From the IMG/VR virus record IMGVR_UViG_3300033273_000374, positions 1-64,000 of that record: DNA of 64,000 bases; one strand, 5' to 3'. The number at the start of each line of letters is the position of its first letter. The stretch's first letter is position 1. Source of the DNA: a virus. Taxonomy: Duplodnaviria > Heunggongvirae > Uroviricota > Caudoviricetes. The translations under genes and the position numbers were made by a program. This document shows positions 1 through 50,716 of this stretch, piece after piece. The notes under the pieces are model-generated. The model was given only the letters and a program-made list of their open reading frames with translations. It was not told the DNA's origin and made no database searches.

Positions 1-49
1 GATTGACAGTATCTCTGTAGGCTCATATCAAGCCGTTAAAGTTTAATAT

Positions 50-141
50 GGACAGGTGGGTGAGTGGCTGAAACCAGTGGATTGCTAATCCGCCGTACCT
101 TTAATTGGGTACCGAGGGTTCGAATCCCTCCCTGTCCGCCA
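50..141 (+). tRNA. tRNA-Ser(GCU), type II with long variable arm and encoded CCA
   Basis: Manual cloverleaf fold. Acceptor stem GGACAGG/CCTGTCC, 3-bp D stem, anticodon stem GTGGA/TCCGC with loop TTGCTAA (anticodon GCT), 5-bp variable-arm stem GTACC/GGTAC, T stem GAGGG/CCCTC with loop TTCGAAT, discriminator G then CCA. Confidence 0.88.
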
Positions 142-204
142 TTTTATCTATAAAAATATAATAAAAATAACTCCTTACATATTTTTTGAAATATACGTCC
201 CTAT

Positions 205-513
205 ATGTGTCCACATATTGGGCATTCTATACCTGTGGTTGGGGCGCTCATTGCCTTCTCGGGTAAATCTAAAAGTCATGGTAACAAAGCAGAGAAGTAC
301 TTCCGTGACGCAATCACTGTACCAAACACTGTTCCAGCGAAAGGTGACGCTGTAGAACAACGACTGATACGACTTGGGAATGCTATCTTCCATTTATCTG
401 CTGGTTTGATTGAATCAAGAAAGCAGATCGGTGCAGGGATTGCTATTGATCTAACGGGTCATCTACTGACATATAAATCACTTAACTCAATGGGTGATAA
501 AAGGCGGTGGTAA
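205..513 (+). CDS. hypothetical protein (102 aa); weak start context
   Basis: ORF track only. No recognisable motif and a poor RBS. Confidence 0.25.
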   Translation: MCPHIGHSIPVVGALIAFSGKSKSHGNKAEKYFRDAITVPNTVPAKGDAVEQRLIRLGNAIFHLSAGLIESRKQIGAGIAIDLTGHLLTYKSLNSMGDKRRW

Positions 514-560
514 GTCGTCATCTCTCATTTTTATATAGAAATGAGCACCCGTTGCTAAGA

Positions 561-590
561 TTGCTTCTAAGGCTCAATAACGACTACAAT
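561..590 (+). promoter_or_regulatory. sigma70-like promoter TTGCTT-N17-TACAAT upstream of the SPFH gene
   Basis: -35 at 561-566 and -10 TACAAT at 585-590 with a 17-nt spacer. An SD-like GGAG lies at 614-618, before the ATG at 628. Confidence 0.45.
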
Positions 591-627
591 CTCCATTATT
601 AATTTGAGAATAACTGGAGCCAATTAG

Positions 628-1551
628 ATGGAAGCATTAATTGGGGCGTCGGCAGTGATTACACTTCTTTTAGTGGCGTTCGGAATTTTACTTGTTTTCA
701 AAGGCATAAAAATCGTGCCTCAGTCTGATGTTTTCGTAATTGAGCGTTTTGGAAAATACACACGAACTCTTCAGGCAGGACTGAATTTTCTAATCCCGCT
801 TCTGGATAACGTGGCTCACAGAATATCAATACTTGAGAGACAACTTCCCGAGTTCACCATATCGGTGATCACAAAAGATAACGTTGAAGTAAAGTTAGAT
901 GCGACTGTCTTTTATCGGGTCGTTGATGCAGCAGCTTCTGTATATCGTATTCGTGACATTGATCAGGCTATCTACACAGCTTCAACATCGATTGTACGAT
1001 CTGCTGCAGGCAAACTTGAACTAGATGAGCTGCAGTCGTCGAGGGAGTCGATGAATGAAGAAATTGCAGCAAATCTCCAGAGTGCTGCATCAGTCTGGGG
1101 AATTGAAATTACTAGAACAGAGATCACCGATGTAATCGTCGATGAGGAAACTAAATCCGCCCAACGACAACAACTGAATGCAGAACGCCAAAGACGAGCG
1201 ATTATTGCAACGTCGGAAGGTGAAAAGCGGTCTGTAGAACTCGCAGCTGAGGCTGAGCTTTTTAAAGCTTCGAAAGAAGCAGAAGCGATCAGAGTAAAAG
1301 CAGATGCAACTGCCTATTCAATCGAGGTTGAAGCAAAAGCGAATGCTGAACAGACCCGTCTCATAGCCTCTGCTATTGCAGAGAACGGTCAGCCTGCAAT
1401 TAATTTTGAAATCATGAAACGACAAATAGAGGCGCTGGGCGATGTTGCTTCAGGAAGCAACACTAAAACAGTAATTGTTCCCACCGACATAACAAAATCT
1501 ATGGGAGTACTTGAAACGTTGTTAGAGCAATTTAGAACCAAAAGCCCCTAA
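628..1551 (+). CDS. SPFH/band-7 (stomatin-prohibitin-HflKC family) membrane protein
   Basis: N-terminal TM segment, then a typical band-7 core (VPQSDVFVIERFGKY...VITKDNVEVKLDATVFYRV...) and a coiled-coil Ala/Glu-rich C-terminus. Confidence 0.85.
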   Translation: MEALIGASAVITLLLVAFGILLVFKGIKIVPQSDVFVIERFGKYTRTLQAGLNFLIPLLDNVAHRISILERQLPEFTISVITKDNVEVKLDATVFYRVVDAAASVYRIRDIDQAIYTASTSIVRSAAGKLELDELQSSRESMNEEIAANLQSAASVWGIEITRTEITDVIVDEETKSAQRQQLNAERQRRAIIATSEGEKRSVELAAEAELFKASKEAEAIRVKADATAYSIEVEAKANAEQTRLIASAIAENGQPAINFEIMKRQIEALGDVASGSNTKTVIVPTDITKSMGVLETLLEQFRTKSP

Positions 1552-1564
1552 CGGAGTAAAGCTT

Positions 1565-1858
1565 TTGACTTTGAATTTTTTAGCGTTTTCAGCTGACTTC
1601 TGGATCATACTTGGTCTTGCTTTAATCATCGTTGATATTTTCCTATCGTCTTTTTTTCTTCTCCCGATAGGAATATCAGCGTTGTTTATTTCTGGTTTAC
1701 TTTACTTCTTTATAGAAGAAGTGCAGGCAAGCGGCTTGATGACGTCTTGGCGGGACATTTTGCTTTGGTTCGCAGCACTTTCAGTCATATCAATTTTTTT
1801 GATGCAACTCTTCGTTCGCATCAGAAAAAAAGATCGGAAAGATATAAATCAGTATTGA
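1565..1858 (+). CDS. NfeD-like small membrane protein (partner of the SPFH protein)
   Basis: 97-aa polytopic membrane protein 14 nt downstream of the SPFH gene. SPFH-NfeD operon architecture is well established. Confidence 0.5.
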   Translation: MTLNFLAFSADFWIILGLALIIVDIFLSSFFLLPIGISALFISGLLYFFIEEVQASGLMTSWRDILLWFAALSVISIFLMQLFVRIRKKDRKDINQY

Positions 1859-2096
1859 TACAATATCGAATAAATCACTCAGTTCGATGGGTGACAAAAG
1901 ACGACGATAACTTGCGTTCTTTCATTTCTACTTAAAAATTACAAACTTATCAGACGTTCTTCAGAACTCGATAAATACTTGTTCTTTCAATGCCCAGTTC
2001 TCTTGCGAGTGCTGTTACTCCCACTCAATAGTTGCGGTGATGTAAAGCATTGATTTATATAGCATTTAATATCACTTTCTAACAAGTTTCTAACTA

Positions 2097-2124
2097 TTCC
2101 CTTCGTTTGTGCGTACGAAGGGAA
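2097..2124. other. perfect 10-bp stem hairpin (TTCCCTTCGT/ACGAAGGGAA, 8-nt loop) in a convergent intergenic region, followed by a second 6-bp palindrome
   Basis: Read directly from the sequence. It lies between the plus-strand SPFH/NfeD pair and the minus-strand R-M genes. No adjacent U-tract. Confidence 0.4.
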
Positions 2125-2244
2125 CTATTGAAACTCAATAGTATCAATGCGTTAGTGAAAAGGCGATTGAAAGGTTTCTTTCTTAATTTTCCCTACCAAT
2201 CACGCAGTTAAGCAGATACAGTCTATAAAGAATACCAAAAATCA

Positions 2245-3351
2245 TTAAATGTCTAAAAGTTGGCGTAGATAATTTTCGGCATTATCTAAATCAAAACTTA
2301 GCGATTTTTTCTTATCAACTAGTGAGTTTATATTGCCGCTCATTTGCGTTACGCCACGTGAATTACGACCAGCCCAATGATGCTGGACTCTAAGCATACA
2401 TATAAACTCATTAGCAAGTATAGGTATAAGTCGACTTTCTATACTTTGCCGCTCAACATCAATAACGAGAATCAAAAAGCAAAATATTTCACTTTTATTT
2501 GAGAGAATCTTAAGAACCTTATCGATGTTGAATGCTTTTGGGTTGGAACTTAAGTGTTTTAACTTAGTTTTTATATCAATTAAGATGCGAACTTGATTTG
2601 ATGCTTCAAATACGATGTCTTCGGTCTTGTGTTCGTTAATGCCTTTTGTAATAATTTGCTCTATCGAAATTCCTCTTGTATTGATATTTTGATCCTCAGA
2701 TGCTTGTAATATTTTATATTTTTGGAGTTCAATTTTTTTATACAAAATAATTTCTAAATTTTTGTATTCATCTGAATTAAAAAAATTTTTGTAACGATTT
2801 GGTGCCGATAAAATTGATGCTATTTCATCTTTATTTGGTTCGTATCGGTTGTTTTTAGCAACAATAGAATTTGTTGAATCAACTAATCTTTGAATATTTT
2901 CAGATAGTGAAATTGATTGATGTATTTCAAAAAGGTTCTTAAAATTGGATACTGTGTTGATCATTCCATTATATTCTTCGCTAATGTCTTGCCCCAAAAA
3001 ACTGCCTTTGATGTTAGTTTCTGACAGCGTATGAGAACTATGGCTTATCTTTTTCAAAAAGGTTGTATTGCTTAATAAAAACTGAAGTGAGTTGTCTCTT
3101 ACTACTATTACAACAAAAGGCTTATCGTCATATTTGAGCAATGCCGATAAACTTAAAACTACGTTCGAAAATCCTTTTTTTCCGCCCCTAACTTCAGAAA
3201 CGCGAAATGAATGGCTTTTGGATGTGAAGACTGAGCGTTGTTTGTCTAAATTAAGTGAATCTGTAATAAAATCCTCTAAATTCTTTTTGCCAAAGGCTTG
3301 GATTGATTGTTGTTTTAAGATTGCGTCTATGTCGCTGAGTAAATGTTCCAT
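2245..3351 (-). CDS. putative Type II restriction endonuclease (368 aa) by context
   Basis: Its start overlaps the methyltransferase stop (3351/3354). It shares the markedly AT-rich composition of the methyltransferase gene. A possible PD-(D/E)xK-like stretch (VIDVERQ). No confident motif. Confidence 0.35.
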   Translation of the reverse strand: MEHLLSDIDAILKQQSIQAFGKKNLEDFITDSLNLDKQRSVFTSKSHSFRVSEVRGGKKGFSNVVLSLSALLKYDDKPFVVIVVRDNSLQFLLSNTTFLKKISHSSHTLSETNIKGSFLGQDISEEYNGMINTVSNFKNLFEIHQSISLSENIQRLVDSTNSIVAKNNRYEPNKDEIASILSAPNRYKNFFNSDEYKNLEIILYKKIELQKYKILQASEDQNINTRGISIEQIITKGINEHKTEDIVFEASNQVRILIDIKTKLKHLSSNPKAFNIDKVLKILSNKSEIFCFLILVIDVERQSIESRLIPILANEFICMLRVQHHWAGRNSRGVTQMSGNINSLVDKKKSLSFDLDNAENYLRQLLDI

Positions 3352-3353
3352 TT

Positions 3354-4349
3354 TTAGACATTTAATGATTTTTGGTATTCTTTAGTGACTTCTTTTGTTT
3401 TTTCACGCTTTTGCTGAAGTGATAATGTATTTCTTTCCCAAAAAACATTATCACTATATCCTTGTATTGTCATATCCTCATCGGCTTGGTTAAGTCTCTT
3501 TTGGGCCCACAAACAATATTCATTTTCTTGCTCAAATGCTAAAAAGTTGCGTTTCAATTTCTTAGAAACGACTGCTGTGGTGCCACTACCTAAAAATGGA
3601 TCACACACTAAATCGCCTTCATTCGAACTTGCTAAAATTAATTTGGCAATCAATTTTTCACTTTTTTGTGTGGGGTGATCGGTATTTTCTGGCATAGACC
3701 AAAAAGGTATTGTTATGTCAGACATTAAGTTTGAAGGTGCTGTGTCTCTGAACTTTCCATTATCAGAATCCATCCAATCTTTTGGTTTTCCATCTTCTTT
3801 ATATGGTGCGATAACGGAACGTCTTAGTTTTACAGAGTCCACATTGAAAATGTATTCATCACCTACGGTACAAAACCAAATGTCTTCGCTACAATTTTTC
3901 CAATTAGTTTTTGCCCCTCTACCTTTTTCGCGTTCCCACGTAATTCGATTTCTGATTTTGAAAAATTTTGAAGCCGCCTCATAAATTGATATGGAACTGT
4001 ACCAATCGCCGCAAATGTAAACAGATGCGTCCACTTTGAGTTTAGGAAGAAATGTAGAGAGAATATCCTCTAAATAAGACGTGTATTGGCCTATAGAAGT
4101 TCTAGAAAAACTTAACGCATTGAACTTTTTATTCAAATTATATGGTGGGTCTAAGATAAGAAGATTGATGCTATTGTCCGTAATTTTGGATATTGCGTCT
4201 TTGTAATTACAATTCACAATTTTATTTTGAAAGTTATCAATAGAACTTAACTGATCTTTTGAGACAATTCGTTTGACCAAATTATCTTTTTCTGAATCTA
4301 AAATCGTTAATGTTCGATTGCGAGGTGCTCGCGTTTTTTGTTTTGTCAT
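3354..4349 (-). CDS. DNA amino-methyltransferase (N6-adenine or N4-cytosine), beta class
   Basis: Motif IV DPPY (LLILDPPYNL) precedes motif I (CDPFLGSGTTA). This order is characteristic of beta-group amino-MTases. Confidence 0.85.
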   Translation of the reverse strand: MTKQKTRAPRNRTLTILDSEKDNLVKRIVSKDQLSSIDNFQNKIVNCNYKDAISKITDNSINLLILDPPYNLNKKFNALSFSRTSIGQYTSYLEDILSTFLPKLKVDASVYICGDWYSSISIYEAASKFFKIRNRITWEREKGRGAKTNWKNCSEDIWFCTVGDEYIFNVDSVKLRRSVIAPYKEDGKPKDWMDSDNGKFRDTAPSNLMSDITIPFWSMPENTDHPTQKSEKLIAKLILASSNEGDLVCDPFLGSGTTAVVSKKLKRNFLAFEQENEYCLWAQKRLNQADEDMTIQGYSDNVFWERNTLSLQQKREKTKEVTKEYQKSLNV

Positions 4350-4363
4350 TTTTCATTCCCAAA

Positions 4364-4432
4364 TCATTTACTAAATGGATTTTGTGTGCGATTTTTAAGA
4401 CCAGCACGTTCGGTCATTTGTATAACAGACAT
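4364..4432 (-). CDS. 22-codon leader ORF (MSVIQMTERAGLKNRTQNPFSK) with a perfect SD AAGGAGG 6 nt upstream
   Basis: ATG at 4432. SD AAGGAGG on the minus strand. TGA stop 15 nt before the methyltransferase ATG (4349). Confidence 0.25.
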   Translation of the reverse strand: MSVIQMTERAGLKNRTQNPFSK

Positions 4433-4472
4433 TTAAGTCCTCCTTTTTTACAAGATTTAACTTGCTACAATT

Positions 4473-4494
4473 AATGTAAGAATTAACTTACATT
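4473..4494. promoter_or_regulatory. inverted repeat AATGTAAG-N6-CTTACATT upstream of the R-M operon (candidate operator)
   Basis: 8-bp perfect arms read directly. It overlaps the -10 region of the putative promoter. Confidence 0.4.
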
Positions 4495-4496
4495 TG

Positions 4497-4525
4497 TATA
4501 ATAACATCTTTACGGTAGATGTCAA
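4497..4525 (-). promoter_or_regulatory. putative promoter TTGACA-N17-ATTATA reading into the leader ORF/MTase/REase
   Basis: Minus-strand -35 TTGACA (4520-4525). The -10 is weak. Confidence 0.3.
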
Positions 4526-4531
4526 CTGTTT

Positions 4532-4783
4532 TTACGCAACTTTTTTGTACTGTTGATACCAGTACAGTGAAGAGTCTCTGAGAGTTTCGTTTGCCTTTCG
4601 TATGTACTCAAGAGTTTCAAGCAGTGTGGCTTTACGAAGCTCATCAACTGAATCATCATACTTGAAATGATCTTCAATGATCTCTTGAACAAAGTTGATG
4701 TAAGGACATGTGTTAGGTGGAACCTTAGGTGCTTTTGCTTTAAGTTCCAAAATGCGCTTGTCTTTTGCAGATGATCTAGGCAT
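4532..4783 (-). CDS. hypothetical protein (83 aa)
   Basis: ORF track; co-oriented with neighbours. Confidence 0.45.
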   Translation of the reverse strand: MPRSSAKDKRILELKAKAPKVPPNTCPYINFVQEIIEDHFKYDDSVDELRKATLLETLEYIRKANETLRDSSLYWYQQYKKVA

Positions 4784-5172
4784 AATAAATCCTTTCTTAG
4801 GTCCAGGCTTGTATTAACATTACAGAATTGTAAACAACAGGTTGCTCAACAATGACGTTCTGCAACCCCATGCCAAAAAACACTATTGTTTCTAACAAGT
4901 TTGCTGACATGTGCATTATCCTCTAGAGACAAAAACTTTCTAAGTCTTGGAGTCTAAACATAAACAAGCTATCTTTAGGATAGCCTGCTATAGTGCAATC
5001 CAAAACTAACTCTCCAGCAATATCCTTGCGGATATTTTTAATTGCAACATACTTCTCGAGCAATGGGCTATAAGCAGTTTTGTACAAATGCATTTTGCTA
5101 AGTGTCAGTTCGGATATCATTGCTTGGTCCCTGTTGTTAACTATACGTACAATAGCACAAAAGAAGCAGGTG

Positions 5173-5436
5173 TCAACCTTTTTTTGTTATATTTTCTGTA
5201 TCAGCAAACTTTACAACAAACGTGCTTTTGGATTTATGATCCTGCACTTCAAACAATTTGGTATTCAAATCACGAGCAACAATATCGCCTGTGCTTGTAT
5301 AATCACCATACCTTCGAATTGGAAGGTCTGCTGTGCTATACATACCACCTGGACGCCCAAAACTATCCAGCGGAATGTTTACGGTAAATGTGCAACTGTA
5401 ACTGTTGCCTGCTTGAATGTCAGTTGGTGTAATCAT
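5173..5436 (-). CDS. hypothetical protein (87 aa)
   Basis: ORF track; minus-strand gene series. Confidence 0.45.
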   Translation of the reverse strand: MITPTDIQAGNSYSCTFTVNIPLDSFGRPGGMYSTADLPIRRYGDYTSTGDIVARDLNTKLFEVQDHKSKSTFVVKFADTENITKKG

Positions 5437-5449
5437 TGATTTCTCCTTG

Positions 5450-5734
5450 TTATTTTGGCATCTCTACAATAGGAAATTCTGCATATTTTTTGCGTCGTGT
5501 GCCGCTTGCTCCTTTGCGATGTACCATACCTACAGCAAAACCATTCTCCAGTTCTACCCAATATTCAACATCACGCTCTGGACCAGGCCAGTTTTTATAA
5601 CTGGCGTTACGTCTAACAATACGCACATCACTGAACTTCTTTGCTTCAATGTCAGTGTTACGGTACTTGGGCAAGTCCCACCAAGCACCAAAATCATCTT
5701 CGAGTGTCATATTTTTGTTGAGGATATTGTACAT
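5450..5734 (-). CDS. hypothetical protein (94 aa), coupled to the upstream AAA+ gene
   Basis: Start is 2 nt after the CobS-like stop. Confidence 0.5.
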   Translation of the reverse strand: MYNILNKNMTLEDDFGAWWDLPKYRNTDIEAKKFSDVRIVRRNASYKNWPGPERDVEYWVELENGFAVGMVHRKGASGTRRKKYAEFPIVEMPK

Positions 5735-7848: not shown

Positions 7849-7919
7849 ATAGATATCGCGTTCAGAACCTTCTATTCTGCCCGCTTTTATGAATGCATCT
7901 GTGTACTGTTTTTTAGTTT

Positions 7920-8207
7920 TTATGGAAATATCTTTTTGCCCTTGTCTAAGAGCACAACACTAAAGTCCTCACAGTTGAACTTGGTGTTTAGTTTCTTAGC
8001 AAGGTTAATGGCATGCCCTGGATTTGAGAAGGATACTTTTTTATACTTTGGACCAGGATAGCTGATCAACATGTTTGAACTTTTTAAATTGATAGGTTGA
8101 TTTTGGTAGTAAACAGCCCAAATACCTTCGCTGGCCAACACTTGTTCGCTTTTATAGGTTTCTCTGTCTACTTTTTCTAATAGCACTGTGGGCTTGGGTC
8201 TACTCAT
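7920..8207 (-). CDS. hypothetical protein (95 aa)
   Basis: ORF track. Confidence 0.45.
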   Translation of the reverse strand: MSRPKPTVLLEKVDRETYKSEQVLASEGIWAVYYQNQPINLKSSNMLISYPGPKYKKVSFSNPGHAINLAKKLNTKFNCEDFSVVLLDKGKKIFP

Positions 8208-8262
8208 ATCATTCTCATAGTATATAACTATTTATGAGTAATATGAGTAGTTTATTAATTTT

Positions 8263-8475
8263 TTACCAATTGGGTGCTACAATTTCAATAGATTCTGCTT
8301 GTCTAGTTTTTTCAGCAATTATCTGATCTTGCAGTTGCACACAATACTCCAGCAGATCTTGATATTCACGTGCAATTTGTTGTGCTTCTGTGCGATTTAC
8401 AGTTAGCACATCAGTTTTTACAGTGGTACATCGCTGCGCAAATCTGCTCAGTGCTGGAGTATTGGGCAATCTCAT
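8263..8475 (-). CDS. hypothetical protein (70 aa)
   Basis: ORF track; 4-nt overlap with the downstream gene. Confidence 0.4.
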   Translation of the reverse strand: MRLPNTPALSRFAQRCTTVKTDVLTVNRTEAQQIAREYQDLLEYCVQLQDQIIAEKTRQAESIEIVAPNW

Positions 8476-8990
8476 CGTGCTAATCTAAGTGCTTCCTGCA
8501 TCTCAAGCCTTGTTTTAAATGGCCCTTTATACTCATTGCGTGTTAGTGATATCAGCTTTGGACTGTATGCAGGACGCCATCCACCATTGTCAAAGTTAAC
8601 AATGTAGTAGCCTGCACAGAAAAAGCAGGTGCTTTTTTCTTGCTTGGTGTATATTGGCAGTTTGCGTTTGAGATCATATATGTCGTTGAATGGTTGTGTT
8701 TTAGCAGGATACCCATGCACTTCGTATTCTTTTTTCTCAACAGCACTGTCAACTTGTGCTTCAGCAAAGCTGATGTTTGTGAGATCACCTTTGTTCTTTA
8801 CACGAATATTCTTGTTTTTTACAGTGAGAATATACTCATCATCATAGCGTAATGTGCCAACTTTTTCGCCATTCTTTTCTACAATCCAAAACTTGTCTTG
8901 TACAATTGGCTTAGCCTCATACTGCATCATACCCTTTACCCAACCATTCTGCGTATTTTGTTGCATCATCTGCGATGCGTTTAAGTTCAT
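8472..8990 (-). CDS. hypothetical protein (172 aa)
   Basis: ORF track. Confidence 0.5.
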   Translation of the reverse strand: MNLNASQMMQQNTQNGWVKGMMQYEAKPIVQDKFWIVEKNGEKVGTLRYDDEYILTVKNKNIRVKNKGDLTNISFAEAQVDSAVEKKEYEVHGYPAKTQPFNDIYDLKRKLPIYTKQEKSTCFFCAGYYIVNFDNGGWRPAYSPKLISLTRNEYKGPFKTRLEMQEALRLAR

Positions 8991-9912
8991 ATTTTCCGCA
9001 GTACTTTAAAAACTTTGCACCTACCATAGGATGCTGTTTGCGTACTGCTTGTTCTGTGATACGTTCGTCAATGTACTGTTTAATTTCTGCAGGCTGTGCT
9101 GTAAGATCTACCAGTGTAACATTGCGATTGTAGTCATCTAACACACGATGTTCTTCACCGTTGTGATCTACCCAACGTTGCAACATCATGTTGTTCCAAT
9201 TGTACCCTTTACTTTCTCTGTCTTCATATGCTTGCAAGAGTCCAATTTTGTTTTTCGTGCCCTTCGTTCTAACACCTGGATAGGCACTAAAGACATTGTC
9301 AGTAGGATCTCCGCGCATGCACTTCTCAAACAACAACCATTTAGGGTCCGGAGCAGGCTTTGGTTCCTTTGTTTTCTTGTCCATGACGGGCCTGTTTTGA
9401 TCATCAAATATTCCTTCAATAGTAATCATGTGGTTAGCAACACCGTTGTACTGTTGCACATTCTCACTGAGTAACTGCACAAAGTCTGTGTCACTGCTGA
9501 CTATAGTATGTTTATCATCGGGGTGTCTATCAATCCAACGTGCAATCAAGTCATCTGCTTCAGCAATATCACACTGTAATACTGTGCAGTTTGTTTGCTC
9601 TGCAAGAAACACCTTAAGCTCGTCAAATGCTTCCCAAAACAGTTTGTCTTCTTCTTGTTCACGTTCAGTAAGAGCTGCACGAGCAACAGCACGATTCTTT
9701 TTGTAAGGCTCGTAGAAGTCTTTGCGCCAACTACGACCTTCTAAACAAAACACCACATGATCTGCGTTTACTTTGCGATAGGCACTGTTTACTGCACTCA
9801 TTGTCACATGAATAGCAAATCCAAGTTTAGTCCACATGTCCATGCCACGTGATGCCACATGCCTTGCTCTAAAAAATGTGTTTGCTGTATCTACTAGTAG
9901 ATAACTTGTCAT
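8917..9912 (-). CDS. rnh: T4-type RNase H / 5'-3' flap endonuclease (FEN/PIN)
   Basis: N-terminal LLVDTANTFFRA and SSDTDFVQL acidic clusters, typical of T4 RNase H and bacterial Pol I 5'-nuclease domains. Confidence 0.85.
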   Translation of the reverse strand: MTSYLLVDTANTFFRARHVASRGMDMWTKLGFAIHVTMSAVNSAYRKVNADHVVFCLEGRSWRKDFYEPYKKNRAVARAALTEREQEEDKLFWEAFDELKVFLAEQTNCTVLQCDIAEADDLIARWIDRHPDDKHTIVSSDTDFVQLLSENVQQYNGVANHMITIEGIFDDQNRPVMDKKTKEPKPAPDPKWLLFEKCMRGDPTDNVFSAYPGVRTKGTKNKIGLLQAYEDRESKGYNWNNMMLQRWVDHNGEEHRVLDDYNRNVTLVDLTAQPAEIKQYIDERITEQAVRKQHPMVGAKFLKYCGKYELKRIADDATKYAEWLGKGYDAV

Positions 9913-10667
9913 TTTATCACTCTTGGTTGTACTACACTTCGAATAGTTTTTATAGTAACATCATTTGTAGTATCTGTCAACCTTGGAAGTAGATGTTTGT
10001 ACCAGCCTATGTGTGCGTCTCTTCCATAATGATAACTGCCGTATCTCACAGGCTTGTAATTGTTTTGTGAACACCATGAATTGTAAGTGCTTGCTTCATT
10101 GTAAGGATCTATGTAACAGTTGTGCCAATCTAGTTTGTCTTGTACATGTGGTCTAAACCAACTGTATGTGTTAAAGAATAAATGGCGTATTCCTGCGCTT
10201 TGTAGCGTTGTGTGTAGGTCATATATCTTTGTGTGCCATTCCAGTTGCTTACGATCCAGTTCCTGCATTGTTTGATTTTGCACCCAGCTCTTGTACTGTT
10301 CTACTAAGTGTTGTGGCACAGAATCTGTACCACCTGCAGTTACTTGATAGTATGTTTCTCCGTCTTGCCACTCTTCTCTGTCCCAACTGGTCCAACCTAT
10401 GAGCACAAACACATCCTGTTTGCGATTGTCTTGCAGAAATTGTTGTGTTGTGCGTAGTATTCTTGCATTGCTACTACCACTTTCAGCATCCAGATAAAAC
10501 CCTGCATTTAAACTTTGTGCAAGTTTATATCCAAATGTGTGAGGTATGCAATCAGGATGTGGGCGACGTCCAAGGTGTTTGTATGTAGGATCGTCATCAG
10601 CAAATGCAAAATTTTGCTCTAGTTCAGCACCAGCAGTATGACTGTCGCCATTGACATACAATATCAT
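9909..10667 (-). CDS. SGNH/GDSL-type hydrolase-like protein
   Basis: N-terminal VNGDSHTAG block, matching the GDS(L/H) catalytic-serine motif. Confidence 0.55.
   Translation of the reverse strand: MILYVNGDSHTAGAELEQNFAFADDDPTYKHLGRRPHPDCIPHTFGYKLAQSLNAGFYLDAESGSSNARILRTTQQFLQDNRKQDVFVLIGWTSWDREEWQDGETYYQVTAGGTDSVPQHLVEQYKSWVQNQTMQELDRKQLEWHTKIYDLHTTLQSAGIRHLFFNTYSWFRPHVQDKLDWHNCYIDPYNEASTYNSWCSQNNYKPVRYGSYHYGRDAHIGWYKHLLPRLTDTTNDVTIKTIRSVVQPRVIK
9952..9980 (-). promoter_or_regulatory. sigma70-like promoter GGTTGACA-N17-TACTAT upstream of rnh
   Basis: -35 at 9975-9980. Lies inside the 3' end of the preceding ORF. Confidence 0.45.
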
Positions 10668-11119: not shown

Positions 11120-12013
11120 TTAGGTTCCCCAGGCATTTCCAAATAGGCTAATGTGGAGTCTTGGAGTAAATCTCCATCCTCTTTCCATACAGGCTTCTGC
11201 CACGTCTTTAACGTTGAGGGAATATTCTTCACTGCGTCCGCCCATTGGCATAAGGTAGACCGGACACTGGACTCCGGCGTCCCTATAAGCGTCCACAGCT
11301 CTTGCAACTTCGTTGAAATCATCCTCACTAGCGACAACAAACTTGAGATACATGTCACTACCGTCAACAAGGCTATACTCACGAGCAACAGCAGGCAAGA
11401 TAGCAGTTTCCCAAGGTTCTCCGCTAACACTAAGTTTTGGGGAACAACTCCAAGTGACTGTAAATCTGTCTTGGTCGTTGAGATAATTGAAGAAATCGTC
11501 GTGTAACTCTTGTGTAGTGTTTGTTTCAAATGTGACATTTTTCAAATCCTTCATACGTGGATGCTCAAATAAATCTATGTAGAGCTTTTGCCAAGCTAAC
11601 AAAGGCTCTCCGCCGGTTAATATTAAATGAATATCTTGACCATTGTCTTGTGTCCATTTACCATTGGGAGCAAGTGATAGCAAATGTTCAACCACTTCAT
11701 CTACTTCTGCAAGTTTATTAAAGTGTTTAAACTCTGGGTAGATACTTGCATATGTATCACACCCTGTGTGAATAATAGGCAAGTCGTTAAATTCTTTTGT
11801 AGTTTCATGTACGCCTGCATCAATAAGTGCTTTTACTTCTGCATTGTATCGCTGACCTTCTTTGTGTTGTTCCCAGCGATCTTTTTTTGTATCAACTCCA
11901 AAGTTCATACAACGGAAGTTACAACCAAATGTGCGTAAAAATACACTAGGTACTCCTACAAACTTGCCTTCGCCTTGTACACTGTAAAATGCTTCGCTGT
12001 ATCTAAGTTTCAT
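11120..12013 (-). CDS. queE: radical SAM 7-carboxy-7-deazaguanine synthase QueE
   Basis: N-terminal YSVQGEG motif and the C-x14-C-x-C cluster (FGCNFRC....) typical of QueE. Confidence 0.85.
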   Translation of the reverse strand: MKLRYSEAFYSVQGEGKFVGVPSVFLRTFGCNFRCMNFGVDTKKDRWEQHKEGQRYNAEVKALIDAGVHETTKEFNDLPIIHTGCDTYASIYPEFKHFNKLAEVDEVVEHLLSLAPNGKWTQDNGQDIHLILTGGEPLLAWQKLYIDLFEHPRMKDLKNVTFETNTTQELHDDFFNYLNDQDRFTVTWSCSPKLSVSGEPWETAILPAVAREYSLVDGSDMYLKFVVASEDDFNEVARAVDAYRDAGVQCPVYLMPMGGRSEEYSLNVKDVAEACMERGWRFTPRLHISLFGNAWGT

Positions 12014-12071
12014 TTGTGGCTTCCTATTAACTGCTTCATACGATGGATAACCTTTTTCATATACTGGTCAT

Positions 12072-12914
12072 TCAAACGTCTGTTTCATAGATTAATTCTC
12101 TTAATTGTGTTGTTGTTTTGGGCCATTCATTTAGTCCATAACATTTTATTTCATAACCTTCAATTCTAAGTCTGCGTTGCATGTCTGCTTCATCTAATAA
12201 AGATAAGTCTTTCATTTCTATGTTAATATTGTTTATTGTAGCATAAACAAGTTCTTTAATCAATCTATCTTTGTACAAATAAGGTTCGTTGGCTAACCAG
12301 TCTTTACCTAATACTTCTATCTCTTCTGTAGATCGAACAACATCTAGATCTAAAAATTTAGCCATAGATCGAAATGAGGTTACAAAATTATCTCTTATCC
12401 AATTGATAGGAAATTTAAAAACACGGTCGTTGTTGTAGTTTACAATTTGTTCATAACCGCCTTCTGAGTTGTGTTGATTGTACCACCACAGACTTAACCA
12501 TTCCCTTTGCTCCCAAATATCGTCACCTTCCCATTGAGACAGAGCATTTTCACGATCTTGTGCAACACCTTGATTTTTAGTGTAAAACCCAATTTTGTAA
12601 AATTTATTACTAGCATTCCATAGGTAATCATTTGGTTCTGGATATAGTAGAACAATTTTATCATATACACCTAGTACTTTTTTTATTTGAACTATTATGT
12701 CATCACTTTGTGTACGCACAGGGTGTACATGTGAATTTGAGATAGGTTGAATTAAAGCCTCATCTACAGTTTCAAATTGAATTAAATCATTGTTGTGACT
12801 AGTATGTCTAGCAGTAAATGGTCTTTGTTCAACTGGATATCTGCCTGTCATCCAATCAATGCACCATCCAGTAAACGATCCGTAACTACCAGCGTTATAT
12901 ACAATTATATGCAT
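12072..12914 (-). CDS. paralog A of a tandem pair; P-loop/sulfotransferase-like N-terminal motif (NAGSYGSFTGW)
   Basis: 280 aa. The last ~25 residues (...GYEIKCYGLNEWPKTTTQLRELIYE..) are nearly identical to paralog B at the nucleotide level. Confidence 0.6.
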   Translation of the reverse strand: MHIIVYNAGSYGSFTGWCIDWMTGRYPVEQRPFTARHTSHNNDLIQFETVDEALIQPISNSHVHPVRTQSDDIIVQIKKVLGVYDKIVLLYPEPNDYLWNASNKFYKIGFYTKNQGVAQDRENALSQWEGDDIWEQREWLSLWWYNQHNSEGGYEQIVNYNNDRVFKFPINWIRDNFVTSFRSMAKFLDLDVVRSTEEIEVLGKDWLANEPYLYKDRLIKELVYATINNINIEMKDLSLLDEADMQRRLRIEGYEIKCYGLNEWPKTTTQLRELIYETDV

Positions 12915-12931
12915 TATTCGTTGCTGAATCT

Positions 12932-13116
12932 TTCTTTGTGTTGTTCCCAGCGATCTTTTTTTGTATCAACTCCAAAGTTCATACAACTGCTTCATACGAT
13001 GGATAACCTTTTTCATATACTTGCCATTCAAATGTTTGCTTCATAAATTAACTCTCTCAGTTGTGTTGTTGTTTTGGGCCATTCATTTAGTCCATAACAT
13101 TTTATTTCATAACCTT
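12932..13116. repeat. 185-bp duplicate of 11858-11913 (queE codons ~35-52) joined to 12032-12160 (paralog 3' end and flank)
   Basis: Direct comparison of the two regions. A 118-bp stretch (queE 5' end and start codon) present at the first locus is absent from this copy. Confidence 0.8.
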
Positions 13117-13882
13117 TGTTCCGTAATTGGCGTTGTATTTGACTTTCGTCAATCAACGATAATCCATCCATAAACAAATTTTTATTATTGATTATAGCAT
13201 CAACTAGATCAGAAATCAATTTATCTTTGTTAACAAATATTTCTCGTTGTAACCAGTCTCTGTAAAGACTGTTGATTTCATCGCTGTTGCGTACTACTTC
13301 TAGTTCTAACCAATTTGCTATGTCGCACACTGTAAATTGAAAATTATCTCTTATGTTACTTATTGGCACAGTTTTAACATATTGTTTGTTAAGATTGTTT
13401 ACCTCATTAATACCTGACCCAACTACAAATATATCATGTAACAAAAAACTAAGTTGTTCTCTTAACTCCCATAAATTGGTGCCTTCCCATTTGTCCTCGT
13501 TTACTTTAAGCATATCTTTTATGTATTGCTTGTTGAACAAACCATTTTTGCTTGCTTTTGAATTACAGTTATTCATAATCCAAATAAAATTATCTAACTT
13601 GGGATACAAATAGAGGACTTTATCGTATACAGTGTGTAAAAGTTCAATTTGTGACTGTAATGATTGTACACCTTCATACATTGGATGCACCAATATTCCG
13701 TTGTGAGCTAATTCACATGCTTTTTCAACAGTTTTAGGATGTATCCTAGTCCATCCATGACTATTGAATACAGTGTTACCTACAAATGGTCTATAATCAA
13801 CAGGATATTTTCCTTGTAACCATTCAAGGGTCCATCCAATAAAATTTCCGTATGCACCAGCTGGGAATGCCACAACGTACAT
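13028..13882 (-). CDS. paralog B of the tandem pair (PAGAYGNFIGW N-terminal motif)
   Basis: 284 aa. Moderate similarity to paralog A through the body; identical C-terminus. Confidence 0.6.
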   Translation of the reverse strand: MYVVAFPAGAYGNFIGWTLEWLQGKYPVDYRPFVGNTVFNSHGWTRIHPKTVEKACELAHNGILVHPMYEGVQSLQSQIELLHTVYDKVLYLYPKLDNFIWIMNNCNSKASKNGLFNKQYIKDMLKVNEDKWEGTNLWELREQLSFLLHDIFVVGSGINEVNNLNKQYVKTVPISNIRDNFQFTVCDIANWLELEVVRNSDEINSLYRDWLQREIFVNKDKLISDLVDAIINNKNLFMDGLSLIDESQIQRQLRNKGYEIKCYGLNEWPKTTTQLRELIYEANI

Positions 13883-14361
13883 TATAATTCAGTAAGTGTT
13901 TCTTTGCGTGTGAACCATGGTGTAAAGATTGCACTGTTTGCACCATGTTCGCTACATTCGCAACTTTCGCAACTTACACGGCCATCTGTTTGTTCACGCA
14001 CCAATTGATCTGCAAATCGCCATGCATGCTCTGCAAACTTCTCCGCACCAACACCATCTAGTATGGTAAGTTGAGCAAGTCCTTTTGCTTCTAGTTCTTT
14101 GAGATCATCTAGTTTAGGATCTGCACTGTCCAGTACAACCTTGTGATCAAATGTATCTTCAAGCCATTGTTTAAGTGGCTTGAGTCCTCCAAAGTCTTGT
14201 ACCCAGTTGCGATGATCAAGATCACTTGCAGCAAATACAAATTTAAATGCTAGACTGTAGCCATGTAAGAACCTGCAGTGTGAATGATCTGCATGTGGTT
14301 GACGAAACACTGCACTGAGTCCAATGTTGTGTCCATATGTTTTTGTTGAATAATGCGGCAT
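13882..14361 (-). CDS. queD: 6-carboxy-5,6,7,8-tetrahydropterin synthase QueD (PTPS family)
   Basis: CxxxHGH-type motif (HSHCRFLHGYS). T-fold size 159 aa. Confidence 0.8.
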   Translation of the reverse strand: MPHYSTKTYGHNIGLSAVFRQPHADHSHCRFLHGYSLAFKFVFAASDLDHRNWVQDFGGLKPLKQWLEDTFDHKVVLDSADPKLDDLKELEAKGLAQLTILDGVGAEKFAEHAWRFADQLVREQTDGRVSCESCECSEHGANSAIFTPWFTRKETLTEL

Positions 14362-26633: not shown

Positions 26634-27151
26634 TCGTGTCCTGTTACCTGTAGAGTGTATCTTGGTTCAAGTCCAATGTTAGCAGCCATGTGTTCAACAT
26701 CTCCTCTCCACCAAATGTAATCGCCGCGCTTCCAACTAACAATCGGATTGCCTGCTATTTCAAAATAATGTCCTGATTTCCAATTTTCTAAGAACACTAT
26801 AATACGTTGAATTTGATTTACTTCTACATCAAATAGTTGTCTGTATTTTTTATAAGTGTCTCTGTGTGTGGGTAAAACTACGCCTGTAGGCATTCTATAA
26901 AAACTAGTGCCTGTATTTTTAAGTCCGTATATGTTTTTCAACATTTGCACTAGATCGTTTGTATAACCTGTTTGTGGTTTACGCATATCACATAGATCAC
27001 CTACAAAAGGCGGAGTGTAGCCTTGTACTGTCCACGTATCTATATCTTGGGAATTATTAAAGGGCTCAGACTGATAATCAAGGTCTATGTGACTATCGTC
27101 CCAAAAAGGATCTATATAGCCTATGTGCCAGTTACTATCGTGTGTTGCCAT
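26630..27151 (-). CDS. cupin/Fe-oxygenase-like protein, paralog 2 (173 aa)
   Basis: PTHRDT ... VEHMAANIG. Shares the WK(P/S)GH(F/Y)..(D/E) block with paralog 1. Confidence 0.35.
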   Translation of the reverse strand: MATHDSNWHIGYIDPFWDDSHIDLDYQSEPFNNSQDIDTWTVQGYTPPFVGDLCDMRKPQTGYTNDLVQMLKNIYGLKNTGTSFYRMPTGVVLPTHRDTYKKYRQLFDVEVNQIQRIIVFLENWKSGHYFEIAGNPIVSWKRGDYIWWRGDVEHMAANIGLEPRYTLQVTGHE

Positions 27152-28418
27152 AATGTATTACCTTACTTGCTTCGCTGTTAAATTTACGCCATGGATCTAC
27201 CACAATGCTATCCATTGGTATTGTACAATACAAACTGTCTGTGTTACTGTCTTGGTGCATGTATTTGTAGGTTGTGCTTGCACTATGTGCTAATAACATT
27301 ACACAAGATTGTTTAGGTTCATTATTGTCTCCAGTCAATGGATCAATGTATGTTACACTTTTGCCCATTTCCTCAACATAATGACCGATCAATAAACTAT
27401 AACTTCCATCAATGTATTCTACACCAGGCTTGTATGCTTTGCCATGTATATAAATTTCCATTGCATTTTCGTCTGCAAGTTTTACTAACAGTTTAGCAAG
27501 GTTGTGTGCTTGCTTTTCTCTTGCATTCATTATAGCGTCAAATAAATCATATCCTAAATCTAATTCTTGTGCCATGTAGCGCAAGGCAATATTGTCACGC
27601 GGATGGCAAGCACCACCATCACCCATCCCTGCAGTCATATACTGCGGGCCCATGATCCGTTTGGTTGACTCTGCTAGTGCCTGGGTAACCACATCAACAT
27701 TGATATTGCCCTGCTTTACTGCCACATCCTGTATCATGTTTGCCAGTCCAATTTTGGTACTGATAAATGTGTTGTAAAACACTTTGATACATTCGCATTC
27801 GTCCCAAGTACCAACAACATACCTGGGATCATTTTCAATTACTGTTTTATAAAAGTCTACTAATAGTTGTGCATCACCTGTGGTAGTGCCATCTTCAGTA
27901 CCAACCATTACCATTTCAGGATTTAAAAAGTCCCATGCAACACTGCCCATAGCAATCAAGTATGGGTTGTATGCAAAACGTGTGTTTGTTATCAGTGGAA
28001 CAAATTCTCTGCGAACTGTGCCCGGAAGCACTGTAGAGATAAGCACAATCATTTGTGCATTGTGCATGTGTTCGTTACACTCACGCAATACTTGTTTTAC
28101 AATGTCGTAGTTAAAATCTTTAGGTTCAAGATGTGCAGTAGGCACACGACCATCATAACTTGCTTCATGCGGAGTTGGCACTGCTACAAAAACAATCTTA
28201 GAAAACTCAACTGCTTGTTTGATAGTGTCTACGATGTTTACATATTCACTTGAAACTGGTGCAACATCGTAACCTTTGACACTGTGTCCTTTTTTTGCCA
28301 TTTCCTCTGCACATGGCATTCCAAGTTTTCCGCAACCTATAAAAGCAATATTCATTGTGATGTGTACCATTTGTATGCAGTACGGATTATACTGTCTAAA
28401 TCGTGATTTGCTTTCCAT
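27135..28418 (-). CDS. ugd: UDP-glucose 6-dehydrogenase-family nucleotide-sugar dehydrogenase; probable start at MNIAFIG (28355)
   Basis: Rossmann IAFIGCGKLG and catalytic Cys motif GGACHPRD. Full three-domain length. Confidence 0.8.
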   Translation of the reverse strand: MESKSRFRQYNPYCIQMVHITMNIAFIGCGKLGMPCAEEMAKKGHSVKGYDVAPVSSEYVNIVDTIKQAVEFSKIVFVAVPTPHEASYDGRVPTAHLEPKDFNYDIVKQVLRECNEHMHNAQMIVLISTVLPGTVRREFVPLITNTRFAYNPYLIAMGSVAWDFLNPEMVMVGTEDGTTTGDAQLLVDFYKTVIENDPRYVVGTWDECECIKVFYNTFISTKIGLANMIQDVAVKQGNINVDVVTQALAESTKRIMGPQYMTAGMGDGGACHPRDNIALRYMAQELDLGYDLFDAIMNAREKQAHNLAKLLVKLADENAMEIYIHGKAYKPGVEYIDGSYSLLIGHYVEEMGKSVTYIDPLTGDNNEPKQSCVMLLAHSASTTYKYMHQDSNTDSLYCTIPMDSIVVDPWRKFNSEASKVIHYGNTR

Positions 28419-47007: not shown

Positions 47008-47325
47008 TCACTTGTTCATATTAAATGCAAAACTTACCTGTCTTGCAAGTTGTATGCCTCTGTCACGTTCTGCTTTTTTACTGCTCTTTTTCATTTTGTT
47101 TGCTTTGGCTCGCAAACGTTTGAGATCTGTTTGACTTAATTTTTCGCCTGCACCTTTGCCAAGATACTGTGCTGCTTTGCGTTTTAAACTGCCGGGCCTA
47201 CTACCAGGTTTAGGTGCTTGCGTAAAGTCTTCAACGATGTGTTCCAACTCTTGTAGTTTACTTTGCAATAGTTCATCATAGTTCTCCTCAGTTATTACGC
47301 TTTCTGTTATCCTTTGGCTGTTCAT
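47008..47325 (-). CDS. hypothetical basic protein (105 aa)
   Basis: ORF track. Confidence 0.45.
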   Translation of the reverse strand: MNSQRITESVITEENYDELLQSKLQELEHIVEDFTQAPKPGSRPGSLKRKAAQYLGKGAGEKLSQTDLKRLRAKANKMKKSSKKAERDRGIQLARQVSFAFNMNK

Positions 47326-50300: not shown

Positions 50301-50716
50301 GTGCTAAATCCTTGCATTGCTGCCGCATCTTTGGGCATGGGTTGGAAATAACTTGGTGAACCATCTTTCTTTGGCTTGAAACTGAACCTTGGATCCTCTT
50401 CCATGTCTTTGCCACTGACTGCAAAAACCACTGAAGTTGTAGCAGGATCAAAGTTGCGCAGTATTTCTTCTGCTCTGTAAGGTTGTGCGCTTTGCACAAT
50501 TGCCCCTGCAGGAATACCAGCAAACACCATCATTGCACGTTTTTCTGCAAAACTAAAAGGGCTTTTGGGTGGATCTATTTTGTTGCTGGTAGCAATATAA
50601 ACTGTGTCGTATTTGTTGTTAAGATAGTTATACACACTGGCATGCCCTTTGTGGAAGGGATGAAACCTGCCAGGATAAATTACAACAGTCTTTTTAATGG
50701 CTTCAAAAATACGCAT
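47288..50716 (-). CDS. 1142-aa multidomain protein: N-terminal NMNAT-type nucleotidyltransferase (HxGH), central GNAT-like acetyltransferase fold, long uncharacterised regions
   Basis: VVIYPGRFHPFHKGH matches the cytidylyltransferase/NMNAT signature. QNAGIGTEVMQRIVDMADQEGKRIAL...LIDFYKRFGF is GNAT-like. Confidence 0.6.
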   Translation of the reverse strand: MRIFEAIKKTVVIYPGRFHPFHKGHASVYNYLNNKYDTVYIATSNKIDPPKSPFSFAEKRAMMVFAGIPAGAIVQSAQPYRAEEILRNFDPATTSVVFAVSGKDMEEDPRFSFKPKKDGSPSYFQPMPKDAAAMQGFSTHGYIATVPTLDFTVLDKPMRSATELRQNFANADDETQKQMITDLYGAYDENIHNIMRNKIKEHVDKYAQYIVAAESVFADLNTLYEHKQFDTARVLEYANKIIDRINSIPVVETLDYLDPDDPMDSIVIIPGVGTMSVRGLMENIAAKMKELSMMADTNEPTAFRNIKYRMDSNIIGVMMDALVNAFDDIENIRRTGGGESNNIPKDVFDSVMHMHEAWSAKYKRSIDCSNPKGFSQRAHCQGRKKKESIEEAQSKQDMTLSHLHPSLRPMVRTALMKYPMADSELAAVVQMLKQEHERNRKQEKELKRLDRENDEQDVEIDNTDARVDKLEKTKAESIDEAGVGIIDKQNTTQDVKPGETERQAKKFFGGDGKPKPLHKSAASNSTPNKLFNLGLSEIYTPLAIAIMEGGNSLPEFDNINESFAQKLEAEFPGLDLDLYDTKSGYILSKIALPKEQQNAGIGTEVMQRIVDMADQEGKRIALTPDTAFGGSKGRLIDFYKRFGFVPNKGRNKTFDFRETLVRYPQQDINEALDNPYPLKWEGDPNDQSSAIAEIPLPNDDVDYLDVQFDGMGTGIFEIGFTRNERTKATGKGDEFRIFATVIEAIKQWWNKVDQDSVTQIYFSASKNPEDSARRHVLYTRFAKQFADQIGFDLEVLDRIGNVRFVLKRKDDHVFNEDISMPDWQTIVAIAAAAKMTPLAIKAMWKTAKGAYAVKKFADRAGIKIADKIKEAWQLRLERDDDMDVLHITDTRTGKRTEVRGKKDYEGDGYDAEDKLHQLLDKVGKAASISDLMNGEPVTINPTHPQGPSAKAHAKKAFNEEFVEPQFDVEWEEAERYPEFEKIGKEEWIKLAKKGKAVEITDASDIENTDAADPDSFKSLDPNKQKRALAQLEKGDVEMPIVAVYSDGYKELIGDNTRLTAMMAKDGKATVWQFEVPDEVAELAKEDLNTSEREFAVERGGIVVPFASGNFASIVPHRALKVKKPTPGRLSYEQPKDNRKRNN

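Follow-up and report, generated by a model that had tools for sequence, protein, structure and literature searches.

A bacterial restriction-modification cassette, probably captured very recently by a jumbo phage and rearranged into a methylase-nuclease operon

Two adjacent minus-strand genes, here called M and R, are found in the window, which is the whole 64,000-nucleotide stretch of viral DNA analysed and to which all coordinates refer. M (3354-4349) encodes a 331 aa predicted beta-class N6-adenine-type DNA methyltransferase and R (2245-3351) a 368 aa predicted PD-(D/E)xK Type II restriction endonuclease. Two nucleotides, AA, separate the M termination codon TAA (3356-3354) from the R start codon ATG at 3351; the junction reads TAA-AA-ATG, without the stop/start overlap that the first-pass annotation had described.

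The assignment of M draws on Pfam, PADLOC and structure matches. It matches PF01555 (N6_N4_Mtase) with an E value of 4e-35 and a score of 122 bits, where the Pfam gathering threshold is 26.7, and the PADLOC MTase_II model with an E value of 2e-58. The DPPY motif near residue 67 precedes FLGSG near residue 243, which places motif IV before motif I and agrees with the beta-class assignment made earlier from the motif order alone. The nearest solved structures are M.BceJIV (8urk/9c3u) and M.MboIIA, and DPPY together with the best adenine-enzyme matches (M.BceJIV, M.MboIIA and PRK11524) favours m6A as the product, with NCBIfam scores below their cutoffs. No enzyme name is given among the M homologues listed.

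R has a restriction-endonuclease fold with a topology nearest to EcoRV, SwaI, HincII, PvuII or NlaIV, its best fold matches are blunt-cutting enzymes, it is itself predicted to cut blunt, and its catalytic core is E...D...DxK; we class it as a putative EcoRV-branch PD-(D/E)xK endonuclease. Like the SwaI, EcoRV, HincII and NlaIV systems, the pair consists of two separate genes, with motif IV before motif I in the methylase and the E...D...DxK core in the nuclease. R differs from those enzymes in its length, which exceeds theirs by about 140 aa, in its conserved N-terminal domain, and in having neither a sequence-level match to solved endonucleases nor a matching Pfam or NCBIfam model for its family. 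It has no tblastn match among phages (INPHARED) or plasmids, an exact look-up found it absent from the record, and there is no enzyme name among the members of its cluster. Candidate-site counts and word statistics indicated no target site.

R is full length, with D...DxK and every invariant residue intact, and carries the substitution N228I in the motif R-G-N-x-I-E-Q, with the putative catalytic E231 three residues further on. Position 228 is asparagine in 121 of 125 relatives and isoleucine also in one other family member (P0012). Since the position is near-invariant, the nuclease may be attenuated. The dN/dS ratios relative to the closest contig, L001, are 0.25 for R (family background 0.215) and 0.42 for M, but are weakly informative and of low power because just 14 substitutions in R and eight in M separate the genes from that contig.

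The pairing of R with M is kept in every relative whose neighbourhood was inspected. In the bacterial family members (L001, L002, L003, L093 and the P0003 contig) R is 57-98% and M 73-98% identical and the two genes are always adjacent, and a 61%-GC phage contig (L098) has a pair of the same family between its terminase and portal genes. The 368 aa product has a nuclease fold and its gene is no unrelated neighbour, so that the earlier proposal of a complete Type II-like gene pair, as opposed to an orphan methylase, is upheld. Judged from its genes, this is predicted to be a complete two-gene Type II R-M system.

Both genes lie within a 2,354 bp cassette (2015-4368) that is shared with the bacterial or metagenomic contigs L001 and L002 and whose borders are the points at which blastn homology ends. 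Nucleotide identity is 98.3-99.1% to L001, a metagenomic contig, and 88-94% to L002, and the M product is 98.5% identical to the L001 methylase. The GC content of the cassette is 33.0% (R 31.7%, M 34.2%, both genes combined 32.9%), whereas the window averages 39.7%, and R and M form the lowest-GC 2.1-kb stretch of the window (z -3.2). The low GC content of the two genes had been recognised beforehand; the accompanying statement that their neighbours are in the mid-40s does not hold throughout, since the small ORFs adjoining the cassette are at 35-38% and a second low-GC stretch (33.4%) lies at about 11.5-13.8 kb. Horizontal acquisition, also proposed in that annotation, is supported.

A minus-strand remnant (2015-2050) marks the left end of the cassette and is found in L002 as well; its translation, MLYITATIEWE followed by a stop, resembles the 3' end of guaA, the usual C-terminus of GuaA being ATIEWE. 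The R-M pair of P0003, 84% identical and on a bacterial chromosome, adjoins the GMP synthase gene guaA, and a 58%-identical pair sits in a 1.85-Mb contig. The remnant points to a bacterial chromosome as the source, and together these observations point to a low-GC chromosomal donor and to very recent capture by the phage. Between R and the remnant is a strong hairpin (2090-2125; -23.1 kcal/mol, z -6.7) that is conserved in L002, but its role as an intrinsic terminator is unsupported, because no T-run follows it. No ORF for a controller (C) protein is present in 2015-4368.

The order of the two genes departs from that of the bacterial relatives. In the closest of these R and M are convergent, with a 12-18-nt 3' overlap and a separate upstream region for each gene, whereas in the window R is inverted relative to this tail-to-tail order, the overlap is duplicated, and M and R are codirectional, with R starting 2 nt past the M stop. 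The duplication is a 39-bp inverted copy of the M 3' end found by repeat search, with arms that are 95% complementary: the right arm (3352-3390) contains the functional M 3' end and the M-R junction, and the left arm (2220-2258), the reverse-complement copy, lies downstream of R and is a relic of the 3' overlap of the once convergent genes. The inversion is thus predicted to have made M and R one operon, an arrangement that is new relative to all closest relatives; a 20-mer spanning the collinear junction has a single, chance AT-rich match in IMG/VR (L087). The native upstream regions of both genes have been replaced or disconnected, with homology on the M side ending 19 nt before the M start, and we regard both native promoters as lost. 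The 39-bp inverted repeat might also let R flip between two orientations. The first-pass annotation makes no mention of the inversion.

Upstream of M, several features had been taken for regulatory parts of the R-M system: a promoter, a palindrome, and a small ORF with a strong Shine-Dalgarno site. This interpretation is not sustained, because homology to the bacterial cassette stops at 4368 and all of these are phage sequence. The promoter-like TTGACA was correctly noticed. It belongs to a sigma-70-type promoter on the minus strand (4498-4525) that matches 11 of 12 consensus positions, with TTGACA at 4525-4520, a 16-nt spacer and TATTAT preceded by TG, and it is the top site within 1500-5500. 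Thirteen such sites occur on the coding strand, and a near-copy differing at two of 28 positions precedes an unrelated gene in the relative L007 (6887-6914). We assign it, as a predicted promoter, to the phage's own early class, now driving M and R.

Directly downstream of the -10 hexamer is an inverted repeat (4473-4494) with perfect 8-bp arms (4473-4480 and 4487-4494). The repeat exists as described earlier, but it is statistically unremarkable (17 8-bp inverted repeats in the window against about eight in shuffled sequence, or about twice expectation), and it was rejected as an R-M operator on the grounds that it lies outside the cassette, is absent from L001 and L002, has no accompanying C gene and occurs at a frequency near chance. 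As RNA it would fold into a hairpin of -8.5 kcal/mol (z -4), and it may represent a hairpin at the 5' end of the RNA or have arisen by chance. C-protein R-M operons likewise have a palindrome near the promoter and a methylase-before-nuclease logic; the window differs from them in having no C gene, in that the palindrome is in phage DNA, and in that the nearby HTH fragment is truncated and flanks the opposite end of the cassette.

The small ORF (4364-4445 with its AAGGAGG, minus strand) has 22 codons at 4432-4367 and a stop at 4366-4364, which is 14 nt upstream of the M ATG; AAGGAGG (4445-4439) sits 6 nt upstream of the ORF. Both were rightly reported, but the ORF is not a regulatory leader: 21 of its 22 codons lie beyond the cassette in phage sequence, cassette homology stopping inside the last codon and the cassette supplying the stop. 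The region is not conserved in L001 and L002, whose M upstream regions are unrelated past 19 nt, and the ORF has no homologue. It is better explained as the 5' portion of a truncated phage ORF, of which the putative 3' stump lies beyond the other end of the cassette (1950-2014, minus strand) and encodes an HTH fragment, ALARELGIERTSIYRVLKNV followed by a stop, with sub-threshold matches to HTH_7, TrmB and HTH_8. This segment joins 4432-4369 in frame to give a 42 aa ORF, and because of the join and the sub-threshold HTH matches a small phage gene looks to have been split by the cassette. Neither a degenerate DNA pattern nor a protein search found an intact version of the 42 aa phage ORF. Without the cassette, the empty site would read …CCATTTAGTACAGCACTCGC…. 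The junctions between cassette and phage show just 1-3 nt of microhomology.

The carrier had been called T4-like. Its polymerase is of the T4 type (phrog_262, E 2e-194), but the label is loose, as the phages closest to it, with only 42-51% identity, are jumbo phages (Phosso 51%, Atu_ph07 48%), with the ATPase nearest to PA5oct (48%), and we place it in the jumbo Phosso/Atu_ph07 group. No structural genes are present in the window, megablast of 1800-25000 against INPHARED gave no match, and an Rfam scan of 1-5600 returned tRNA only. To the left of the cassette only 2 kb are visible, with SPFH and NfeD genes that are rare in phages; the SPFH protein was absent from the record by exact look-up. 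R and M are missing from each of 80 related phage contigs in IMG/VR, and the cassette is therefore no lineage trait. The phage strongly avoids short palindromes, a sign that it meets host Type II restriction.

A plausible scenario, to which we give a probability of roughly 60%, is that a jumbo phage very recently captured a bacterial R-M cassette, in which R was inverted so that an M-R operon now stands behind a phage early promoter. Host RNA polymerase would transcribe the stump, M and R as a single early mRNA that would start at about 4497 and continue through to 2245, and ribosomes loaded at the strong Shine-Dalgarno site would finish the stump 14 nt short of M and reinitiate at the M start. 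Lacking its own Shine-Dalgarno site, R would be translated only through coupling to M, so that M is made first and in excess of R. Progeny phage DNA would be methylated and immune to R, which would cut unmethylated host DNA and that of co-infecting phages, leading to host shut-off, a supply of nucleotides and superinfection exclusion, while M would also shield the phage in hosts with the same R-M system. Tentatively, the capture may have gone further: a virulent jumbo phage may have domesticated the host cassette, its landing behind the early promoter and the inversion of R having produced a coupled operon with which the phage would destroy the DNA of host and rival phages early in infection, its own genome being immune through methylation.

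Selection may instead act on M alone, which would protect the phage DNA from hosts with the same endonuclease, leaving R as an attenuated or decaying passenger. Orphan methylases are common in phages and complete R-M systems rare, with nine in 831 phage genomes (Oliveira et al. 2014, PMC4176335); a donor-type cassette of 98-99% identity makes it plausible that hosts of this phage carry the same enzyme, and the avoidance of palindromes, N228I and the missing Shine-Dalgarno site of R are in keeping with such a role. We nonetheless consider this somewhat unlikely, as R is full length with its catalytic residues intact, has a dN/dS equal to the family background and shares Ile 228 with another family member, and the inversion left R undisrupted, downstream of M and reading in the same direction.

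The guaA-like remnant and the second copy of the M end are leftovers of the kind expected from an insertion that is very young and may be transient. That the cassette is nothing more, a selfish or accidental product of illegitimate recombination that is without a role and not yet purged, is quite improbable. Its absence from the 80 related contigs, the lack of a tblastn match to R in INPHARED, the minimal microhomology, the possible destruction of a small phage gene and the retained bacterial leftovers would all agree with it, but two separate rearrangements have left both ORFs intact, and the placement at an early promoter and the M-to-R polarity look ordered, not random, although this is an argument from plausibility. 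Moreover, an active R would kill the phage unless a matching M were present, and hence at least M has to function if R is active. A chimeric assembly, with bacterial reads misjoined into a phage contig, might be suspected from the absence of the window from the INPHARED and IMG/VR collections and from the left flank, which is atypical for phages, but it is scarcely credible given novel junctions whose microhomology does not exceed 3 nt and which do not arise from a k-mer graph, phage-side stumps that rejoin in frame, flanks unlike every bacterial context seen, and an internal inversion and 39-bp duplication of a biological type.

Chloroviruses carry R-M systems of their own. As in other phage and virus systems, the window encodes a modification enzyme and a cognate nuclease, an arrangement in which viral DNA is immune and host or rival DNA is attacked; what sets it apart is a carrier from the jumbo Phosso/Atu_ph07 group, a very recent capture and rewiring steps that can still be seen. 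Jumbo phages carry modification-plus-nuclease pairs (Iyer et al. 2021, PMC7824862), and a complete R-M system in a phage is rare yet of a known kind. Because the capture is so recent, each step of the rewiring can be read from the sequence, from the 98-99% donor-type cassette and the leftover that resembles the end of a bacterial housekeeping gene to the loss of the native promoters and the conversion of a convergent pair into an operon. With this locus, an endonuclease family that has no Pfam model and comprises thousands of uncharacterised proteins gains a phage-borne representative. The locus is also a concrete and testable case of how a host defence may be turned into a tool of the phage.

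The methylase gene M (331 aa; 3354-4349, minus strand) and the endonuclease gene R (368 aa; 2245-3351, minus strand) lie within a block, 2015-4368, that is 98.3-99.1% identical at the nucleotide level to L001, a 2.3-kb metagenomic contig, and 88-94% identical to a second contig, L002. Those relatives with larger contexts are chromosomal: an 84%-identical pair (P0003) is located among genes for flagellin, Der, a BamB-like protein, GMP synthase (guaA) and IMPDH, and a 58%-identical pair is surrounded by TRAP-transporter and glutamine-synthetase genes on a 1.85-Mb contig. The left edge of the cassette (2050-2015, minus strand) encodes ...MLYITATIEWE followed by a stop, as does L002, and GMP synthase usually has ATIEWE-stop as its C-terminus. 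This remnant, together with the guaA gene adjoining the P0003 pair, suggests that the block derived from a chromosomal site beside guaA. The guaA-like remnant and the chromosomal relatives thus indicate transfer from bacterium to phage and, with the close match to L001, bear out the horizontal acquisition proposed in the first-pass annotation. A hairpin inside the cassette (2090-2125; -23.1 kcal/mol, z -6.7) is kept in L002 and lacks a T-run.

The low GC content of the pair also stands, at 34.2% for M and 31.7% for R in a window of 39.7%; jointly they are at 32.9% (z -3.2), the sixth lowest among 1,238 2.1-kb stretches of the window, the lowest of which (32.3%) is in the same region. The nearest neighbouring genes, however, are at 35-38% and not in the mid-40s as had been supposed. 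A second low-GC stretch at 11.5-13.8 kb (window 11500-13900; about 33.4%) nearly matches M and R; it carries ORFs 12072-12914 and 13028-13882, both without a match in a PHROG search, and may be another acquired block.

M and L001 are aligned forwards (window 3352-4368 with L001 1194-2210), as is the segment beyond R (window 2129-2226 with L001 1-98), whereas window 2220-3359 aligns in reverse with L001 1232-93, and R has therefore been flipped in situ. The inverted segment runs exactly from the R ATG to about 20 nt beyond the R stop, the junctions have just 1-3 nt of microhomology, and approximately the last 33-39 bp of M are duplicated because the 3' ends of R and M overlapped in the ancestor. 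The M-end copy downstream of R is a noncoding fossil and establishes that the event proceeded from a convergent to a collinear arrangement. A repeat search finds the inverted repeat (pair I1) as 39-bp arms, with 33 bp identical, at 2220-2258 and 3352-3390, flanking the entire R gene; recombination between these arms could return R to the convergent orientation with both ORFs intact, and so act as an orientation switch. The expected stop/start overlap of M and R is absent, the minus-strand junction reading ...AAT GTC TAA AA ATG GAA... with two bases between the M stop and the R start. A terminator-like hairpin with its trailing T-run (4319-4333, plus strand) lies antisense inside the 5' end of M, and in the ancestral convergent layout could have served as a stop for R read-through.

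M matches PF01555 (N6_N4_Mtase; E 4e-35) and PADLOC MTase_II (E 2e-58), has DPPY upstream of FLGSG in the beta-class motif order, and has M.BceJIV (target GTWWAC, m6A) and M.MboIIA as its nearest solved relatives. R has no match in Pfam, NCBIfam or PHROG, and no meaningful match to PDB sequences. It matches the PADLOC Type II restriction-enzyme model PDLC03461 (E 7e-59) and falls in a family with 2,420 or more members, about 366 aa long and mostly unnamed, with almost all of the remainder called 'hypothetical protein'. In the fold comparison NaeI, ThaI, SfiI and BglI rank after the closest matches, in agreement with Foldseek. D245 and K261 are invariant in the R alignment, and E231 and D259 are kept in 47 of 48 sequences; the four make up a PD-(D/E)xK signature, and the window R retains them all. 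R thus has a nuclease fold, contrary to the refuting case named in the first-pass annotation of an ORF that lacks one.

A homologous methylase adjoins R in every relative with a visible neighbourhood, and M is therefore the cognate partner of R and not an orphan beside an unrelated gene. The two genes are convergent with a 3' overlap in L001, L002, L003, L088-L090, L093-L101 and the P0003 contig, and collinear (M then R) in the more distant L004-L006, L091, L092 and L102-L105. Ten other IMG/VR contigs carry the R-M family at 35-43% identity; in L098, a phage contig of 61% GC, a convergent pair (7893-10024; R 43%, M 60% identity) is flanked by the genes for the large terminase subunit and the portal protein. 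L088 (1-755; 92-96% identical) apparently has just R residues 202-368 left, with the contig end truncating the adjoining M to residues 163-331 and 254 bp of unrelated sequence upstream, and may have decayed from a complete R-M pair.

The elements described upstream of M are all present: a minus-strand promoter with TTGACA (4525-4520), a 16-nt spacer and TATTAT after TG (11 of 12 consensus positions), an inverted repeat with perfect 8-bp arms (4473-4480 and 4487-4494), AAGGAGG (4445-4439, minus strand) and a 22-codon ORF (4432-4367, stop 4366-4364, minus strand). The role in R-M regulation assigned to them in the first-pass annotation does not hold, as they are phage sequence; homology with L001 and L002 ends at 4368, 19 nt ahead of the M start and within the final codon of the 22-codon ORF, and beyond the equivalent point these contigs share another flank with each other. 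In L007, the closest related phage contig (ATPase 94% identity), the promoter differs at 2 of 28 positions and stands before an unrelated gene. Promoters of this class (TTGACA, 15-18 nt, TAnnnT) occur at 13 sites on the coding (minus) strand (58872, 53875, 53275, 40022, 35600, 34271, 25298, 22194, 19594, 9980, 7703, 7295 and 4525) versus one on the opposite strand; several are just 5' of ORFs with strong Shine-Dalgarno sites, and together the 13 resemble host-type early promoters. The palindrome is poorly placed to be an operator, being in phage sequence with no controller-protein gene in the cassette. Inverted repeats with 8-bp arms are also fairly common, numbering 17 in the window versus about 8 in shuffled sequence, and that at 4473-4494 is predicted to be at best a 5' RNA hairpin (-8.5 kcal/mol). 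Joining phage parts 4432-4369 and 2014-1950 gives an in-frame 42-codon ORF, MSVIQMTERAGLKNRTQNPFSTALARELGIERTSIYRVLKNV, whose C-terminus has sub-threshold matches to HTH families and for which no intact homologue was found. We hypothesize that the cassette split a small phage gene, although an in-frame join would be expected by chance one time in three.

Nearly all of the window genes are on one strand, and include those for a T4-type DNA polymerase (phrog_262, E 2e-194), an ATPase (phrog_1297), a Lon-like protease and an exonuclease. The T4-like label is loose: the polymerase is of this type, but its best matches are in the jumbo phages Sinorhizobium phage Phosso (51%) and Agrobacterium phage Atu_ph07 (48%), with those of Rak2-like jumbo phages next; the ATPase is nearest that of PA5oct (48%). 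Eighty IMG/VR contigs share the ATPase, most of them also the adjoining 94-aa ORF, and none contains R or M. Gene content 3' of this ORF is variable even in the closest relative, and the cassette is therefore in a variable accessory region. A tRNA-Ser(GCT) gene (50-141, plus strand) and an SPFH/Band-7 and NfeD-like gene pair (628-1858, plus strand) are oriented opposite to the remainder of the window; just five phage records have SPFH homologues, and the IMG/VR relatives have none. Genes for a UDP-glucose dehydrogenase-like protein (27135-28418), an 1142-aa multidomain protein with cytidylyltransferase and acetyltransferase-like parts (47288-50716) and the Lon-like ATP-dependent protease (58754-61009) represent accessory functions of a kind usual in jumbo phages. 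Short palindromes are strongly avoided in the window outside 2015-4368, with observed/expected ratios of 0.39 for AGCT (z -11.6), 0.43 for TCGA, 0.47 for GGCC, 0.32 for GTGCAC and 0.33 for ACTAGT, which suggests that unmodified phage DNA has been under host Type II restriction pressure.

The native upstream regions of M and R are both lost or disconnected, and the sole strong promoter for the pair is that of the phage. The transcript order is promoter, Shine-Dalgarno site, 22-codon stump, M and R, with M starting 14 nt after the stump stop and R 2 nt past the M stop without a Shine-Dalgarno site. A plausible scenario is that host RNA polymerase would transcribe the genes early and that translational coupling would yield M ahead of R and in larger amount. 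Phage DNA would then be methylated and immune to R, R would cut unmethylated host and rival DNA, and M would shield the phage against hosts with the same enzyme. The main rival is that just M matters and that R is merely carried along, perhaps impaired by N228I: position 228 (motif R-G-N-x-I-E-Q) is Ile in the window protein and in one other relative (P0012), and Asn in 121 of 125 relatives. dN/dS against L001, from few substitutions, is 0.25 for R, near the family background, and 0.42 for M. A transient neutral insertion of the cassette or an assembly chimera is less likely. Oliveira et al. (PMC4176335) counted nine R-M systems among 831 phage genomes, with Type II accounting for seven, and jumbo phages pair DNA modification with nucleases against host or rival DNA (PMC7824862). 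The interest of this cassette lies in a very recent capture and rewiring that are clearly readable from the sequence.
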